Source: Thermoproteota archaeon
GTDB taxonomy: Archaea > Korarchaeota > Korarchaeia > B14-G2
Direction of reading: 5' to 3'
Assembly (NCBI GenBank): GCA_037917675.1
Contig: JAVCBW010000034.1
Coordinates: 32,001 to 96,000, forward strand
DNA: 64,000 bases
Shown here: piece by piece, positions 18,208-24,845 of the stretch
Layout: the number at the start of each line of letters is the position of its first letter
Position numbering within the stretch: the stretch's first letter is position 1
Translations under genes and position numbers: made by a program
Notes under the pieces: model-generated
Database searches by the model: none
What the model saw: the letters and a program-made list of their open reading frames with translations, nothing else
What the model was told of the DNA's origin: nothing

Positions 18208-20010
18208 TCAATCAAAGCCTACTGAGCTCTTCGCTACACGTAGGATGTCAGGGAGTGCTTCTCTAACCTTAGCTATGTCTCTGTAGTAGGGGCGGTCTTC
18301 CCTTATCGGGAGGCCTATCAGCCTCCCTATATGGCTGTAGGCTGCTCCTGTCCCTGCTCCGAGGCTGCTGGCGCTCAGCTCTGCTGCCTCCAGCCTCAGC
18401 GATATAGCCTGAGAAGCGTTTAGCAGCTCTATTGCAAGCACCGTCTTCGCGTTCTCTAGGATCTCTCTAGCCTTCAAGGCTGCAGTCATGCTCATACTCA
18501 CATAGTCCTCCTGGTTGGCTGATGTCGGTATGGTGTCTGCTGAGGCAGGGTGTGCTAGCACCTTGCTCTCTGATGCTAGTGCTGCAGCAGTATACTGTGT
18601 TATCATGAGCCCAGACATCAAGCCGCCTCCCTCTATGAGGAATGGTGGCAGCCCCCTGTTTAAGGTAGGGTCAAGTAGCCTGAATGTCCTCCTCTCTGAG
18701 ATCATGCTCACATATGTCAAGGCTATTGCTAGCGTGTCTAATGCGAGAGCTAGAGGCTGCCCATGGAAGTTTGCTCCAGAGATGACCTCCATGCTCTCTG
18801 GGAGGACCAGAGGGTTATCGCTTACAGAGTTTATCTCGACTTCAACTATCTTCCTAGCGAACTCTATGGCCTCTCTCAGCGCGCCATGCACGACTGGAGC
18901 ACACCTTATCGAGTAGGCGTCTTGTACTCGCCCTAGCTCAGCTCTCGTGAAGTCCATGTCTGAGAGGATCTTCTTAGCCTCGCTAGCAGAGCACATGGCT
19001 AGCAGCCTATTCTCTCCTTCAGCATGGACTCTGATCCCTGCTTTAATGGATATGGCTTCAGCTAGCTTAGCTGAGCTCACACCTAAGGCTGAAAGCAGCC
19101 TCCTACTCACCTCAAGCTTAGCTCCACCAGGAGCCTCCTCGAGCTCAGTGAGCTCAGCTAAGCTGAGCCCCATCCTCCTCAGCATAGGATCTGAGCTTGC
19201 CCCTACAAGCCTGCTTCCAGCTAGGAACGCTCTAGCTAGCCTAGCGCTCTCCACCTGCCCGCTATGCGGCCTGAGCTCATGTAGCCTGCTGTCAAGGTGG
19301 TCTGTTGGCGAGAGGAGGGCCTCCATGGTCATCGCAAGCGCTAGGTCAGCTAGCTCAGCTAGAGCCTGGCTCTCATGGAGTAGGAGGCATGCTAAGCCTG
19401 CTGTAGCCTGCGTCCCATTGTTGAGTGCAAGCCCCTCCTTGTAGCTGAGCTCAAGAGGGCCGCCGACCTCTCTCAGAGCACTCTTCAGCTCCTCTCCTCG
19501 GACTCTCCTACCTCTCCAGTAGGCTTCCCCCTCCCCTATCAGAGCTAAGGCCATGTGGGATAGAGGAGCTAAGTCTCCACTTGCTCCAACAGACCCCCTC
19601 TCAGGGACAACTGGAACCAGATCCCTGTTGAGGGCTTCGGCTAAAACCTCTAGCACATGATACCTGACACCAGAGTAGCCTCTAGCAAGAGTGTTTAGCC
19701 TCACTAGCATCATTGCTCGAACAACCTCTCTAGGAAGCTCTCTCCCAACACCAGCTGAGTGGCTGAGGATCATGTTCCTCTGGAGCAAGCTAGCCTCCCT
19801 AGAGCTGACCCTGCTTTCAGCAAGAGCACCAAAGCCTGTTGTAACCCCATATACGACAGCTCCCCCCTCAACTAGCTCAACTAAAGCCTTCCACGCCTCC
19901 TCAACCCTCTCCCGCACCCCCTCAGCTATCTTGACCTCAGCTCTCCCATAAGCAACATCTACGACATCTCTGATGGTTAAGCCCTCTCCACTCACAACCA
20001 CAGCCCTCAA
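18208..20010 (-). CDS. hutH: Histidine ammonia-lyase with large internal insertion
   Basis: YGVTTGFG, LSHSAGVG (His-specific SH), MIO triad GASGDLAP, QDAYSIRC, NQEDYVSM. Confidence 0.93.
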   Translation of the reverse strand: MRAVVVSGEGLTIRDVVDVAYGRAEVKIAEGVRERVEEAWKALVELVEGGAVVYGVTTGFGALAESRVSSREASLLQRNMILSHSAGVGRELPREVVRAMMLVRLNTLARGYSGVRYHVLEVLAEALNRDLVPVVPERGSVGASGDLAPLSHMALALIGEGEAYWRGRRVRGEELKSALREVGGPLELSYKEGLALNNGTQATAGLACLLLHESQALAELADLALAMTMEALLSPTDHLDSRLHELRPHSGQVESARLARAFLAGSRLVGASSDPMLRRMGLSLAELTELEEAPGGAKLEVSRRLLSALGVSSAKLAEAISIKAGIRVHAEGENRLLAMCSASEAKKILSDMDFTRAELGRVQDAYSIRCAPVVHGALREAIEFARKIVEVEINSVSDNPLVLPESMEVISGANFHGQPLALALDTLAIALTYVSMISERRTFRLLDPTLNRGLPPFLIEGGGLMSGLMITQYTAAALASESKVLAHPASADTIPTSANQEDYVSMSMTAALKAREILENAKTVLAIELLNASQAISLRLEAAELSASSLGAGTGAAYSHIGRLIGLPIREDRPYYRDIAKVREALPDILRVAKSSVGFD

Positions 20011-20246
20011 AACACCACCAAAAACCCTCTATCACAGCACCTTATAACTGAGGCCCTAGCTCCAGCATCCATGTTAGCTTTAGCATCAGCCATAGCTCAC
20101 ACTAAAGCTGATGGCAGAAGGCATGGGGAGTACTCTCCATAACTGCATGTAAGCTATGCTGCACCCTTAGCCTCAACTGTAACCTGAGCATCCAGAGGCC
20201 TTATATAGTGCCCTAGGACGCTAAAGAGACGTGGACGAGAAGCTAC

Positions 20247-20833
20247 GTGTGTCGCCACCCCTCAGCTGAGGGATCAGAGTGGAAGCTGATAGCTCCATGT
20301 GGCCTCTACTGTGGTGAGTGCACAGCCTTCCTCAATGGAGAGTGTAGTGGATGTAGAGCTGGTGTTGGGCTAGCTAAGGAGTATAGGAGGCTTTGCAAGA
20401 TTGCCAAGTGCTCTGAGAGGAAGGGTATCCAGGTCTGCATAGACTGTGATGAGTTCCATGTAGGCTCTTTGAGCTCTTCAAGTCTGAGGATCTAGAGTCT
20501 AGTGCTTGGCTCCTAGATGTGTGGGTTAACATGAAGCAGGTCAGGAAGCTAGGGATATCAGAGTTCCTGAGCAGGAGGAGAAGCCGGGTTGAGGAGAGGA
20601 AAGCTTGTGCTAGGAGCATGGGAGTCAGCTTCTGTGACGAGTGTGAAGACTGGCCATGCGACCTGCTAAAGAGGCCTGTACTAGCCCCCATGGACCTCAA
20701 GCTGTTCGAAAGGCTCATGGGGGCACGAGGAGCCCTAGCTGAGCAGAGCTACGAGGTATACCCAACATTTCCAGCGTGTAGGAGCATCATGGAGGTAGCC
20801 TGCCATGCCAGCTCTCTGAGCTCATCTCCATAG
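20247..20833 (+). pseudogene. DUF3795-like Cys-rich protein split by a frameshift (or a sequencing error)
   Basis: APCGLYCGEC..CSGC..CIDCDEF continues as PCRLFELF... if one C is added at 20456-20457, joining ORF 20519..20833. Confidence 0.7.
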
Positions 20834-21036
20834 CTCACTTACACCATAGCCTCTCAGAGGCCTGCGAGGCCATCTCGCAGCTACAGCTGCTGATCACAGG
20901 GCCTCAGCAATGTGGGTCGAGACAGCAGACACTAGCAGCATGCTTGAGTTAGGTGCCGAGTGGGTCCTCTGAAGCCTTTAAGCTGCTTTGGTAGCCTAGA
21001 AAAATTTTAATTATAGCTTAAGCTAGGTCTAGTTGC

Positions 21037-21124
21037 GGCCGGGGTGAGGTAGCCTGGTTAGCCTGGGGGCCTGTGGAGCCCCAAGCCCGGGTTCAAGGCT
21101 ATAGAGAGAGTCCCGGCCCCGGCC
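21037..21124 (+). tRNA. tRNA-His(GUG) with encoded G-1 and a 13-nt intron at position 59/60 (21098-21110)
   Basis: Acceptor GCCGGGG/CCCCGGC plus C73; D stem AGGT/GCCT; anticodon stem GGGGC/GCCCC with loop CTGTGGA; T stem CCGGG/CCCGG; AT-rich promoter near 21000-21015. Confidence 0.93.
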
Positions 21125-21536
21125 CATGCTGCTAGCTGCCTCCCAAGCTTAGCTGAGCACTTAGATCTACCTCATGCAGCTACCATAGCTATGACACCGC
21201 TAGTGGCGCTAAGATATGGGGTTAGAGGTGGTTTTCAGGCTGAACTCGCTTCAGAGGCTGTCAGCCTACTAGGCATCTAGCCTCTATCACAAGCTGCTTG
21301 GAGAGGGAGCTATAGCCCTAGTCAGCACCTTGCTTCAGCTTCCAAAGAGCTACCTTGGTCTGCAGGCTGGGGTGTAGTATTGAGAGGTGAGCTGAGGTAG
21401 CGTAGGAGATGGTGCTTCAGCTGAGGAGTATTAGCTGAGTGCTTTCATAGGTCAGCTCCAGAGTGGGCTTAGGCTGCTCTAGCAGCTCATGCAGCGTGTA
21501 TATGGCTTTTGCTGTTGCTTGGCTCAGCTGGCAACC

Positions 21537-21544
21537 TTTAAATA
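21537..21544 (+). promoter_or_regulatory. TATA box upstream of the hisS operon
   Basis: GCAACC-TTTAAATA; the only strong TATA between the tRNA and hisS. Confidence 0.55.
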
Positions 21545-21574
21545 AGCTGCCTGAAGCCTCCAGGTGGGGTTGGT

Positions 21575-21652
21575 ATGCTGCCAGCTTCTAGAAGGTTTTC
21601 CCTCTCAGCTGTAGTAGCCTCTAGTCTAGGAGGTTTTTGGGTTCATAGCTGA
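21575..21652 (+). CDS. Candidate 25-aa leader peptide upstream of hisS
   Basis: ATG about 30 nt after the TATA; MLPASRRFSLSAVVASSLGGFWVHS*; His is the penultimate codon. Confidence 0.35.
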   Translation: MLPASRRFSLSAVVASSLGGFWVHS

Positions 21653-21708
21653 CGGAGGCTGCCAGAGGAGGTTTCTGCAGTCAGGGAGCCTAGCTTGGAG
21701 GTGTCTGT

Positions 21709-23331
21709 TTGAGCAGGGTGTTTAAGGCTCCACGTGGAACTAGGGACTTTACCCCAGAGGAGATGGCTAAGCGTAGCTATGTTGAGAGGGTCATCAGGAG
21801 GGTCTTTGAGAGCTATGGGTTCCAGCAGGTTCAGACACCGATCTTCGAGGCATTCGCCCTCTTCGCTCTGAGGTCTGGTGAGGAGATAAGGAGCAAGATG
21901 TTTGTCTTCACAGTAGACGGAGAGGAGATGGCTCTGAGGCCAGAGGTGACGGCAGCAGTCTGCAGGATGGTCTCCTCAGGTGAGCTAGACCTGTCTAAGA
22001 AGCCTCTCCGCCTATACTACATAGGGCAGTGCTACCGCTATGAGGAGCCTCAGGCAGGCAGGTATAGGGAGTTCTGGCAGGCTGGAGTAGAGCTCATGGG
22101 CTCACCTAACCCTGAGGCTGACGCTGAGGTCATAGCTCTAGCTGTAGACGTGGTGAGGAACCTCGGGATAAGAGGCTTCGAGCTGAGAGTCGGAGACATG
22201 CGTGTCATGAGAGGCCTCCTAAGCGAATCAGGTGTGCCAGAGGAGGCTCAGAACAGGGTGATAAGCTCTCTGGATGTGCTGGAGAGCAGCATAGAGAAGC
22301 TCTCGCTCTACGCTGACAGGCTCAGAGGCAGCGGAGAGCTTGCTAGAGAGGAGCTAGCTGACCTGGGCAGGAGGCTTGATGAGCTCAGAGCATGGAAGGA
22401 AGAGGAGTATAGGAAGATGTCCTCTGGAGAAAGCGAGCTGCCAGCTAGCTTAGAGCCTCTCCTGGAAGTCGACCCCCTAGTATACAGGGTGAGGGAGCTA
22501 TATGAGAGTGGCAGGAGAGAGGAGCTAGCTGAGCTCATAGAGAAGTCGATCCGAGAGCTCAAGGAAGCCCAGAAGGCAATGTGGGTCTACTATGGAGTAG
22601 AGTATGAAGATGGAGTGGAGGTGAAGAGAGCTAAGCTGAGCACCAGCACAGCTGAGGCTCTCCTCAAGATGATGGACCTACATGGCCCAAGAGACAGCGT
22701 GCTAGATGCTGCCAAAAGCATACTCTCCAGCTATCCCTCAGCTCTAAGAGCCTTAGACGCATACAGAGAGGTCCTAGACCTGCTCCCACACCATGGGGTA
22801 GAGGAGTATGTTGCTGACCTCAGCATAGCTAGAGGCCTAGAGTACTATACTGGGATAGTCTTCGAGATCCACTGCCCATACCTAGGCGCTCAGAAGCAGG
22901 TCTGTGGAGGAGGACGCTATGACAAGCTCGTAGAGGAGTTCGGTGGCCCGAGCATGCCAGCTACAGGGTTCGCCTTAGGATTCGATAGGCTAGTCTTAGC
23001 TATGGAGAAGTCTGGTGTGAGGTTTCCGCCACAGAGGAGAGCAGATGTCTATGTGGCTGCACTCTCAGCTAACATAGTCCCATATGCCATAGAAGTCTCC
23101 AGGAAGCTCAGGGAGGCAGGGGTAAGAGTAGAGATGGACACTATGAGGAGAAGCATCAGGGAGGCGCTTTCCTTTGCATCCAAGATGGAGATGCCGTTCG
23201 TAGCGATCATAGGTGAGAGGGAAGCTGCTGAACACAAGGTCACCTTGAGGATCATGGGTGAGAGAAGGCAGGTCACACTCACCCCAGAGGATGCAGCTAG
23301 CCTAGTAGCTAGCAGGGTGGGATCACGGTAG
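21709..23331 (+). CDS. hisS: Histidyl-tRNA synthetase with enlarged insertion domain
   Basis: PRGTRDF, LRPEVT, motif 2 RYEEPQAGRYREFWQ, RGLEYYTG, GGGRYD, motif 3 GFALGFDRL, C-terminal anticodon-binding domain; SD GGAGGTG at 21697-21703. Confidence 0.95.
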   Translation: MSRVFKAPRGTRDFTPEEMAKRSYVERVIRRVFESYGFQQVQTPIFEAFALFALRSGEEIRSKMFVFTVDGEEMALRPEVTAAVCRMVSSGELDLSKKPLRLYYIGQCYRYEEPQAGRYREFWQAGVELMGSPNPEADAEVIALAVDVVRNLGIRGFELRVGDMRVMRGLLSESGVPEEAQNRVISSLDVLESSIEKLSLYADRLRGSGELAREELADLGRRLDELRAWKEEEYRKMSSGESELPASLEPLLEVDPLVYRVRELYESGRREELAELIEKSIRELKEAQKAMWVYYGVEYEDGVEVKRAKLSTSTAEALLKMMDLHGPRDSVLDAAKSILSSYPSALRALDAYREVLDLLPHHGVEEYVADLSIARGLEYYTGIVFEIHCPYLGAQKQVCGGGRYDKLVEEFGGPSMPATGFALGFDRLVLAMEKSGVRFPPQRRADVYVAALSANIVPYAIEVSRKLREAGVRVEMDTMRRSIREALSFASKMEMPFVAIIGEREAAEHKVTLRIMGERRQVTLTPEDAASLVASRVGSR

Positions 23332-24518
23332 TGAATATAGCTGTAGTAGGGGAGGCAAGCTGTGGCAAGTCGATGCTCATAGGAGCTCTCCTCCATAGCC
23401 TCAGAGAGGTCCCAGATGGGTTCGTGGAGAGGCTCAGGAGAGAGTCTAAGGCTGTGTCTGGAGAGGACAGGGCCTACGCCTACCTGCTAGACAAGAGCAT
23501 GGAGGAGAGGAGGCTAGGCCATACGCTTGAGGTTAAAGCCTGCAAGCCACTAGAGCTCCATGGCACCTCAGTTAGGCTAGCTGACACACCTGGCCTCGAG
23601 AGAGGTGCTCACGGACTCATGTCAGCGTTGATGCAGGCTGATGCAGTCTTAGCTGTAGCAGACCCGACATCACATTCTATAGCTAAGCTAGAGGACTCTC
23701 TCATGACAGCAGCTCTCCTCTCAGTAGACCAGTGTATAGCTGCTATATCCAAGATGGATGCTGTAGGCTACTCAAAGCATGCATATGAGTCTACAGCACT
23801 GAAGATCGAGAGGGCAGCTGATTCAGCTGGCATAGTCCTCAAGGCTATAGTCCCAGTGTCAGCTAGGGAGCTCGAGAACATAGCTGAGCCAGGAGGGAGG
23901 ATGAGCTGGTATAGCGGCCCAACGCTAGCTGAAGCTCTAGCTGAGCTGAGAGAGCCAGAGAGGCACCTAAGCCTCCCAATGAGGCTCCCAGTCCAGAGGT
24001 ACTATGAGAGGCCAAATGTGATAGCAGGTGTGATCGCTACAGGTGTAGCTAAGGTAGGCATGGAGATCGTGCTAGCTCCATCAGGTGCCAGAGGGGTAGC
24101 TGAATCCATTGAGTCATGGGGCACTAGGCTAGAGGAAGCTGAGGCAGGTGAGGATGTTGGAGTCAAGCTCAGGGGGGTAGCGAGATACCAGGTGAAGAGA
24201 GGCTTCCTAGCTGGGCCAGCTGACAGCCCACCTAAGTCAGCTAGAGAGCTCACTGCCAGAGTGCGTGTCAAGGTGCCTGAGGCCATCAGGCCTAAGAGGT
24301 CTCTGATGGCATATGTCCACCAGGCTAGAGCTCAGTGTAGGATTCTAGAGGCAAGCCATGAAGGAGAACACACTCTGCTCAAGCTTAGAGTAGAGGATCC
24401 ACGCCCACTTCCAGTAGACGAGCATATGCCTGTAGTCAGCAGGATAGCTCTCAGAGCCCAGCTGAAGGAGTCATCTAAGACTGTAGCTGGAGGAGTCTGC
24501 ACTGAGGTGGCAGAGTGA
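23331..24518 (+). CDS. Divergent EF-1alpha/EF-Tu-like three-domain GTPase paralog
   Basis: GEASCGKS, LLDKSMEERRLGHT, DTPG, SKMD, PVSA, MSWYSGPTL, RLPVQ, VKRG..PP; GTG start overlaps the hisS TAG. Confidence 0.88.
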   Translation: MNIAVVGEASCGKSMLIGALLHSLREVPDGFVERLRRESKAVSGEDRAYAYLLDKSMEERRLGHTLEVKACKPLELHGTSVRLADTPGLERGAHGLMSALMQADAVLAVADPTSHSIAKLEDSLMTAALLSVDQCIAAISKMDAVGYSKHAYESTALKIERAADSAGIVLKAIVPVSARELENIAEPGGRMSWYSGPTLAEALAELREPERHLSLPMRLPVQRYYERPNVIAGVIATGVAKVGMEIVLAPSGARGVAESIESWGTRLEEAEAGEDVGVKLRGVARYQVKRGFLAGPADSPPKSARELTARVRVKVPEAIRPKRSLMAYVHQARAQCRILEASHEGEHTLLKLRVEDPRPLPVDEHMPVVSRIALRAQLKESSKTVAGGVCTEVAE

Positions 24519-24845
24519 AGGCTACGCTGAAAGCCTACACCTACATGGAGCTCATGAGGTGGTGTTGGATCAGCCCCTAGAGCACAGATGGCTCCATTAG
24601 AAGGTCTGCTGGCAGAGGATTCGTGGCGAGGCTGAGAATATAGCTAGAAGCCTCCAGATAAGAGATTCGTCAGCTCTAGCAGAGCTCACCTCAGCAGGGT
24701 CAGCCATAACGCCAGCTCTCTAGAGGAGGGTGAGAAAGCATACAGGATAGCAGAGCGCTCAGCGAGCAGCCACATGTGATAGCTTCCATGCAGATGAGGC
24801 CTAAGCTGAGTAGCATGGGGTGCTGAGGGCTGCATCCAGCTTGCT

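Follow-up and report, generated by a model that had tools for sequence, protein, structure and literature searches.

A histidyl-tRNA synthetase-linked EF-1alpha paralog from a korarchaeal genome and its possible role as a synthetase subunit

The 64,000-nucleotide stretch of archaeal DNA analysed here as a whole (the window; assembly GCA_037917675.1, contig JAVCBW010000034.1, positions 32,001 to 96,000) encodes, directly behind its histidyl-tRNA synthetase (HisRS), a diverged paralog of the translation elongation factor EF-1alpha, which we call the EF1A-like protein. This paralog is conserved among related genomes, is coupled in an operon to HisRS, co-occurs with an additional insertion in that HisRS, and has been co-inherited or co-transferred with it. 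With moderate confidence, we consider the EF1A-like protein to be an EF-1alpha-derived accessory subunit docked on HisRS, which binds GTP with poor hydrolysis and has the probable task of handling tRNA-His at its histidylated end.

The two genes of the pair are arranged as follows.
21709 to 23331, plus strand: HisRS of a long form, 540 residues, with 387.6 bits to TIGR00442 (cut-off 286.75) and an HGTP_anticodon domain.
23331 to 24518, plus strand: EF-1alpha-like paralog, 395 residues in an uninterrupted frame, identified from the open reading frame (ORF), family matches and an AlphaFold2 (AF2) model.

The GTG start codon of the EF1A-like gene overlaps the TAG stop codon of HisRS by one base (TAGTG). 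HisRS, the first gene of the pair, is the sole HisRS above the TIGR00442 cut-off in the assembly of the window's genome (G000, 92.7% complete), and the EF1A-like gene is translationally coupled to it. Besides HisRS upstream, the neighbourhood of the EF1A-like gene includes a nitroreductase. In a congeneric genome (G001), the orthologue shares 79% identity, with motifs and neighbours as in the window.

A canonical EF-1alpha of the same genome is encoded on another contig (L001 1489-2760, contig C57; 423 residues, 623.9 bits), which agrees with an earlier, sequence-only reading that the paralog is not a general elongation factor. That reading had listed a series of motif changes within 23331-24518, and all of them are present at positions homologous to GHVDHGKS, ARGLT, DAPGH, SKMD, IQDVF, PVGR, IEMH and GDNIG of the canonical copy. 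Switch I reads RRLGHT at residues 60-65, IAGV stands opposite PVGR, and the other elements are given below.
23349 to 23372, plus strand: G1/P-loop GEASCGKS (residues 7-14), in which the GxxxxGKS frame is retained and the canonical His-Val-Asp-His replaced.
23409 to 23513, plus strand: helical switch-I region (residues 27-61), the surface predicted by complex modelling to contact the HisRS insertion.
23583 to 23597, plus strand: G3 DTPGL (residues 85-89), with Leu in place of the catalytic His, as read directly from the sequence.
23748 to 23759, plus strand: G4 SKMD (residues 140-143), the same as in the genome's canonical EF-1alpha.
23997 to 23999, plus strand: R223 in VQRYY (residues 221-225), at the position of the aminoacyl-pocket Asp of EF-Tu/EF-1alpha.
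24117 to 24119, plus strand: W263 in IESW (residues 260-263), replacing the His of canonical IEMH.
24153 to 24155, plus strand: D275 in GEDVG (residues 273-277), replacing the Asn of canonical GDN.
24180 to 24188, plus strand: clade-specific A284-R285-Y286 of domain II, predicted to contact residues 62-66 and 111 of the HisRS catalytic domain.

One of the listed changes, G4 SKMD, turned out not to be distinctive of the paralog: the genome's canonical EF-1alpha shares SKMD, which is hence a trait of the lineage. This Ser in place of the usual NKMD also occurs in one other canonical row of our alignment A6.

The family matches place the EF1A-like protein near EF-1alpha and below the cut-offs of the canonical family: NF008969 gave E=1e-62 with 212 bits against a cut-off of 502, and TIGR00483 gave E=4e-57 with about 193.6 bits against 540.1. 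Structures of Aeropyrum pernix aEF1A matched the sequence at E=3e-50. The second-best family was of the CysN type (TIGR02034, 142 bits against a cut-off of 336.1), and the SelB and EF-Tu models were distant (SelB, TIGR00475, 51.9 bits against 242.25). Pfam identified GTP_EFTU (PF00009, 50 bits against 26.5), with the G1, DxxG, xKxD and SA motifs present, as well as a short MMR_HSR1 match over the DTPGL region (residues 60-125). Domain II (GTP_EFTU_D2, PF03144) scored 28.8 bits against a cut-off of 30.3, and its barrel is present in the AF2 model. The chain ends with domain III at residue 395 and has no C-terminal winged-helix extension.

The substitutions are conserved in the ten HisRS-linked orthologues that we found. 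The catalytic His of G3 is present in none of the ten (Leu in seven, Ile, Met or Tyr in the others), bearing out the loss seen in the window alone. W263, D275 and A284-R285-Y286 are found in all ten and R223 in nine. Among 23 rows of canonical archaeal EF-1alpha (alignment A6), the G3 His and the pocket Asn are invariant, the pocket Asp is retained in 20, and the ARY site is variable. Four orthologue pairs, G000 with its congener G001 and three pairs of Bathyarchaeia, gave the following ratios of nonsynonymous to synonymous substitution rates (dN/dS).
G000 and G001: EF1A-like 0.21 (domain II 0.14); HisRS 0.12 (for the available part only); nitroreductase 0.10.
G062 and G063: EF1A-like 0.15; HisRS 0.11; histidine ammonia-lyase (HAL) 0.14.
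G064 and G065: EF1A-like 0.29; HisRS 0.18.
G085 and G061: EF1A-like 0.23; HisRS 0.11.

Domain II has the lowest dN/dS of the protein in the first of these comparisons. The AF2 model, built from a 49-row alignment, has the three-domain EF-Tu/EF-1alpha fold with a mean predicted local distance difference test (pLDDT) score of 95.8 and a predicted template-modelling (TM) score of 0.93. Foldseek aligned it with a TM-score of 0.93 to the GTP form of A. pernix aEF1A (3wxm/3vmf) and of about 0.47 to GDP forms. These results bear on the idea that the gene is a decaying, functionless EF-1alpha duplicate, for which lack of conservation among orthologues had been proposed as a sign. Long branches, the eroded GTPase motifs of some members, the pseudogenization of the neighbouring OsmC-like gene in the window, and the divergence of the window copy, which is the farthest from the EF-1alpha model (about 193.5 bits against 243-397 for five Bathyarchaeia copies), could be taken as signs of it. 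However, reading frames are intact in all ten carrier genomes, dN/dS lies at 0.15-0.29, clade-specific residues are invariant, the fold is predicted with high confidence, and the gene was retained through an apparent transfer between phyla. Decay is already contradicted by these data and seems scarcely credible.

The association with HisRS extends to all genomes in which the paralog was found. We searched 444 genomes, 401 of Bathyarchaeia and 43 of the window's own phylum, and identified ten carriers (G000, G001, G023, G061-G065, G085 and G101), which are kin. In each of them, a long HisRS lies immediately upstream of the EF1A-like gene on the same strand; the ORFs as called overlap in nine pairs and are separated by 16 nucleotides in one. 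A scan of species representatives had yielded five Bathyarchaeia metagenome-assembled genomes with an EF1A-like gene of 36-43% identity, each behind a HisRS of 542-546 residues. Among the 401 Bathyarchaeia genomes, the family profile A4 (E<=1e-122) identified seven carriers, and a query with the HisRS insertion alone recovered the same seven; the gene order in the two carriers beyond the first five is identical. In the window's own phylum, the insertion occurs only in G000, G001 and G023, the three genomes with an EF1A-like copy, and in the other 37 genomes where HisRS was matched, the match is single and unbroken, in open frames of about 426-496 residues where complete. None of the 444 genomes has only the insertion or only the paralog. 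The long HisRS is the sole HisRS over the cut-off in the five Bathyarchaeia carriers checked, as in every carrier genome examined, and a separate canonical EF-1alpha is present in five Bathyarchaeia carriers (one cut by a contig end), in G000 and in G001.

Several loci show further features. The pair of G023 (L160 6709-9511, contig C1) consists of a long HisRS followed by a highly degenerate EF1A-like protein of 409 residues on a branch of length 4.08, with GCRGTGKS and DTPGY; it keeps ESW, GxD and ARY and has neither NKxD nor R223. A gene of the histidine ammonia-lyase family (aromatic amino acid lyases) adjoins the pair in five of the seven Bathyarchaeia loci (L039 1665-3215, L040 1665-3215, L038 5595-7163, L158 4869-6464 and L159 10520-12067) and is absent from the window's locus. 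The copy at L159 (G101) scored 587 bits to PF00221; the others were assigned on the basis of similar length and a similar N-terminus. This neighbour may point to a theme of histidine status. A CinA-like MoCF_biosynth gene lies downstream of the pair in several Bathyarchaeia loci.

The insertion adds about 115 residues to the usual length in the synthetase of the window and splits the match to the hidden Markov model TIGR00442.
22264 to 22710, plus strand: mostly helical HisRS insertion (about residues 186-334), lineage-specific and not found in ordinary archaeal HisRS.
22378 to 22485, plus strand: predicted docking helices of the insertion (residues 224-259), containing interface residues of the complex prediction.

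In our alignment A7, the insertion is present in nine long HisRS sequences and appears as gaps in 14 normal ones. A Pfam search of the insertion returned no family matches, and a word-indexed search with this region gave a single homologue besides the HisRS of the window itself. The AF2 model of HisRS (pLDDT 89.9) shows the insertion as long helices with block pLDDT values of 87-97. Among the nine long enzymes, D224, R227 and Y259 are invariant and E231 is found in eight.

We folded full-length HisRS (alignment A7) together with the EF1A-like protein (alignment A6), using our own unpaired alignments. The interface score derived from predicted aligned errors (ipSAE) reached 0.60, 0.63 and 0.63, against 0.00 in all three controls; the runs agreed in at least 97% of contacts, with partner pLDDT of at least 86. 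The mark used for this score was passed by 58 of 80 solved complexes and 2 of 110 mismatched pairs, a calibration that holds only roughly with own alignments, and a pass supports binding rather than showing it. Confident contacts on the HisRS side involve residues 224-259 inside the insertion and residues 62, 64, 66 and 111 of the catalytic domain. The contacting residues of the EF1A-like protein are 27-28, 30-31, 34, 38, 41-42, 55, 57 and 60-61 around switch I and 284-286. The HisRS insertion is thus predicted to be a docking site that grips the nucleotide-sensitive switch-I region of the paralog. We know of no solved HisRS:EF-1alpha complex, although we made no specific search for one.

The phylogenies suggest that the two genes have travelled together. 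The HisRS tree was computed from columns with residues in 60% of rows or more, by which the insertion was excluded. The nine long enzymes form one clade, with a support of 99 in the Shimodaira-Hasegawa-like approximate likelihood-ratio test (SH-aLRT), and three ordinary HisRS of Bathyarchaeia are its sister group (96). The window's HisRS lies inside the long clade next to those of G085 and G061 (94) and well apart from the enzymes of its own phylum. Forcing the window's HisRS and that of G023 to group with their own phylum costs 73.5 log-likelihood units, with a p-value of 1.5e-5 in the approximately unbiased test for a group that was named after the tree had been seen. In the EF1A-like tree, the window and G001 copies fall among the same Bathyarchaeia copies (96), and the two trees are broadly congruent. 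In the simplest reading of these trees, the two-gene module appears to have arisen in Bathyarchaeia and to have been transferred in one piece to the window's lineage, where it took the place of the resident HisRS.

The sequence-only reading had proposed a slow or non-hydrolysing tRNA carrier or sensor with altered amino-acid specificity. If such a factor were free-standing, the adjacent HisRS would be a matter of operon organisation alone. The conserved pocket changes, including an Arg as in SelB, the loss of the catalytic His, and the age of the pocket Arg/Asp, which precedes the HisRS-linked clade and makes a cargo-specific ancestor plausible, are all in line with such a carrier. However, the perfect co-occurrence with the HisRS insertion, the co-transfer with HisRS and the predicted interface on the insertion are hard to explain by operon convenience. 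The coupling to the sole HisRS, the co-occurrence and the predicted docking therefore shift the reading from a free-standing factor towards a partner of HisRS, and we regard the former as quite unlikely. What stands of the earlier proposal is a non-general factor with conserved changes and without decay, and a slow or non-hydrolysing GTP binder fits as well, judging from the role of the His in EF-Tu.

For an accessory subunit of HisRS, a possible mechanism could be outlined. HisRS and the EF1A-like protein would be made from one transcript with overlapping stop and start codons, and the switch-I helices and the domain-II ARY motif of the paralog would dock onto the insertion of about 115 residues. 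With the nucleotide-binding frame retained (G1, DxxG, xKxD, SA and the switch-I Thr), the paralog should bind GTP. The G3 His of EF-Tu is the residue for ribosome-triggered GTP hydrolysis, and because it is lost, the paralog is expected to hold GTP instead of cycling on the ribosome; binding without hydrolysis is what we infer by analogy with EF-Tu biochemistry. The GTP-form-like three-domain body with its remodelled pocket (R223, W263 and D275) might receive or hold the histidylated 3' end of tRNA-His at the synthetase. Such holding could serve product release, protection or hand-off, and the tRNA-His could then pass to the canonical EF-1alpha. The conserved pocket residues face the aminoacyl group, which suggests that the cleft is used; binding and handling of tRNA-His by the paralog are what we infer from these residues. 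More specifically, and only tentatively, the EF1A-like protein might be an amino-acid-specific EF-1alpha derivative forming a holoenzyme with HisRS, which, by means of a co-evolved docking domain of the synthetase and its own remodelled pocket, takes the histidylated end of tRNA-His directly from the active site with GTP held without ribosome-triggered hydrolysis, thereby serving as a dedicated device for hand-off or sequestration within a module able to supplant a resident HisRS through horizontal transfer.

The pocket changes are not confined to the HisRS-linked proteins. An exhaustive HMMER search of 1.84 billion representatives gave 52 proteins at E<=1e-30, and 22 of the 150 matches listed were inspected. 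Among those inspected, P0011, P0012, P0013, P0015-P0018 and P0030 have Arg at the pocket Asp and Asp at the GDN Asn, and P0083 and P0105 have Lys at position 223. The profile search A2 added about 17 proteins of the P0030 type. A quick IQ-TREE analysis of 61 rows separated a pocket-Arg clade of 24 rows (SH-aLRT 97) from 29 canonical archaeal EF-1alpha; the tree has long branches, and placements on them were flagged as unsure. Within the clade, position 223 is Arg in 21 rows, Lys in two and a gap in one (G023), and position 275 is Asp in all 24. The deeper relatives (P0013, P0016, P0017, P0018 and the P0030 group) keep the His of DxPGH and already carry the pocket Arg/Asp, so that the change of the pocket came first and the loss of His later. 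The HisRS-linked subclade is distinguished by its position downstream of an insertion-bearing HisRS, by ARY at 284-286 and by the missing G3 His, all three in ten of ten. Taken together, these proteins are best regarded as a new subfamily of the EF-1alpha-like type, the terminal clade of which is partnered with a modified HisRS.

Other searches recovered few additional relatives. A word-indexed search with the single protein gave one close homologue, and the ESM Atlas returned only generic EF-1alpha and CysN clusters. In a metagenome scan with alignment A5 and generic patterns, the 44 EF-like frames printed (L161-L204) were all canonical EF-1alpha or of the CysN type. Two EF-like matches, G040:C22 (L031 1877-4218) and G023:C18 (L028 2650-3846), were rejected as archaeal CysN-like proteins outside the family. 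The former adjoins a CysD-like gene (an ORF of the 3'-phosphoadenosine-5'-phosphosulfate (PAPS) reductase type, recognised by eye), and a frameshift or stop divides its frame in two. A 1175-base contig of an archaeal genome (L033, G058 contig C21) encodes a bacterial-type EF-Tu (GHIDHGKT, NKVD) and is probably a contamination of the bin.

Several observations weigh against a HisRS subunit acting on tRNA-His. Because R223 and D275 are older than the HisRS-linked clade, the pocket is not demonstrably tuned to histidine. The dN/dS of the EF1A-like gene is 1.4-2.2 times that of the adjacent HisRS. The G3 Asp is replaced by Asn in G064 and G101, and NKxD and R223 are lost in G023; with the GTPase frame eroding within the clade, the protein may be able to do without nucleotide binding and the pocket, a point in favour of a subunit with a purely structural or regulatory role. 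As the carriers are related, ten of ten represents fewer independent events; the independent lineages that we counted comprise, as a minimum, the genus of the window, G023, and two or three groups of Bathyarchaeia. The module is rare, with 7 of 401 Bathyarchaeia and 3 of 43 genomes of the window's phylum, and in a phylum-wide sample of 401 genomes around G063 the only carrier was the chosen centre itself; of 25 marginal matches besides it, the 19 inspected were all canonical. Such rarity implies an accessory function rather than a necessity. The complex score was obtained with custom alignments, and the conservation seen at the interface is tied to the same alignments. Finally, tRNA-His was not found in the 92.7%-complete assembly of the window's genome by ARAGORN with and without introns, among the anticodons of 35 Rfam tRNA matches, or by a pattern search for T-loops and anticodon loops, where many other tRNAs are missing too. 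About 35 tRNA-like loci were detected in this genome, many with introns and with several other isoacceptors unassigned, probably owing to incompleteness and atypical tRNA genes.

In the main rival explanation, the EF1A-like protein might be a HisRS subunit with a regulatory or structural role and no contact with tRNA, a nucleotide-state switch or scaffold tuning histidine activation with a logic as in CysN/CysD or HisZ/HisG. The operon, the co-occurrence and the predicted interface are common to this explanation and to the tRNA-handling subunit, and the predicted contact falls on the nucleotide-sensitive switch I. The erosion of GTPase motifs or R223 in G064, G101 and G023 would be easier to tolerate in a scaffold, families of the CysN type are the second-best match, and the lyase neighbour in most Bathyarchaeia loci hints at histidine status. 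However, the near-invariance of W263, D275 and R223 and the dN/dS of 0.14 for domain II would be unexplained if the pocket were unused, and the whole three-domain architecture for tRNA binding has been kept at high model confidence. We consider this rival somewhat unlikely and continue to favour a subunit handling the histidylated end of tRNA-His.

Comparison with known systems sets this favoured role in context. The EF1A-like protein resembles aEF1A (TIGR00483; 3WXM/3VMF) in the three-domain fold (TM-score 0.93), with 30-33% identity, the G1/G3/G4/G5 frame and the switch-I Thr, and keeps E261, the Glu that stacks on A76 in EF-Tu. It differs in lacking the catalytic His, in the pocket replacements of Asp by Arg, Asn by Asp and His by Trp, and in a three-residue deletion in the GxGxV loop of domain II; moreover, it adjoins HisRS instead of the usual elongation-factor context and coexists with a canonical copy. 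In the structure comparison, the top matches are aEF1A chains from complexes with aPelota or aRF1 (3wxm, 3vmf), although these simply represent the GTP form of the archaeal factor. Together with the lack of the catalytic residue in Ski7, this might suggest an archaeal counterpart of eRF3, Hbs1 or Ski7 serving the tRNA-mimicking aRF1 or aPelota. No linked aRF1 or aPelota gene occurs in any of the ten loci, all evidence from gene context points to HisRS, and the conserved pocket residues are those facing the aminoacyl group, making such a counterpart highly unlikely. Ski7, other EF1-family members without the catalytic residue and HAS-GTPases share with the paralog a hydrophobic or non-catalytic residue after DxxG; their partners (the exosome/Ski complex and ribosome-biogenesis RNAs) and lineages are different, and there is no homology beyond the G domain.

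SelB, like the EF1A-like protein, is a paralog of the general elongation factor; it serves a single aminoacyl-tRNA and has Arg at the same pocket position. This Arg, stated in the sequence-only reading, agrees with an alignment of three SelB sequences, which have D-R where EF-Tu has E-D. SelB differs in that it keeps the catalytic His, acts on the ribosome, has a C-terminal mRNA-binding extension and does not dock on a synthetase; at the second pocket position, that of the GDN Asn, the three SelB sequences also have Arg, whereas the paralog has Asp. In CysN/CysD, an EF-1alpha-derived GTPase is a subunit of an adenylate-forming enzyme, as is proposed here. However, CysN keeps DxPGH and hydrolyses GTP to drive CysD, and no CysD lies next to the EF1A-like gene. 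As a functional precedent, the LeuRS:EF-1alpha complex of Methanothermobacter thermautotrophicus comes closest; there, binding is reported to increase the aminoacylation kcat about 8-fold, and product channelling was proposed (PMC2094089). In this complex and in the eukaryotic complexes of aminoacyl-tRNA synthetases (aaRS) with eEF1A, a synthetase is paired with a factor of the EF-1alpha type, as is predicted here (ipSAE 0.63). The factor in the LeuRS complex is the general one, and no dedicated docking domain is described in the part of the report available to us; here, a dedicated paralog without the catalytic His would meet a synthetase with a co-evolved insertion.

Full-text literature searches gave no description of a HisRS-linked EF-1alpha paralog, although supplements such as the per-genome tables of PMC4342817 might list such sequences. 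An "Ss-EF1A-like mRNA" (PMC11698992) is, in the part of the article available, only a model mRNA and irrelevant to the paralog. A 2015 survey of translational GTPases distinguished seven archaeal subfamilies (aEF2, aEF1A, aGTPBP, aIF2g, aSelB, aSelBL and aIF5B), none of which resembles the HisRS-linked paralog as far as the accessible part of the survey describes them (PMC4342817); relative to those seven, the paralog adds an eighth. Channelling of aminoacyl-tRNA from synthetase to elongation factor has been debated for decades, with evidence mostly from weak or transient complexes of general factors. In the present case, the pair appears to be hard-wired by evolution, with a dedicated paralog and docking domain that are co-inherited and co-transferred, and with the ribosome-dependent catalytic residue removed. 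If the complex is real, it would offer a compact two-protein system for studying the structure and kinetics of hand-off, product release or the regulation of aaRS by an EF-like protein, and if the holoenzyme exists, the EF1A-like protein would be the second elongation-factor paralog, next to SelB, that serves a single aminoacyl-tRNA. The apparent replacement also suggests that a foreign synthetase, arriving together with its partner, can take the place of an essential one.

An Rfam scan of the whole window gave no match, and the region of about 1.7 kb upstream of HisRS (20010-21709) contains one minus-strand frame of 114 residues and otherwise no ORF of at least 110 residues. Downstream, at 24515-24830 on the plus strand, lies the remnant of an OsmC-like gene, a pseudogene with several indels (for example, of 18, 11 and 6 nucleotides as well as single-base ones) and in-frame stops. 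In the congener G001, an OsmC-like ORF of 129 residues overlaps the end of the EF1A-like gene and scores 27 bits to PF02566, just below the cut-off.

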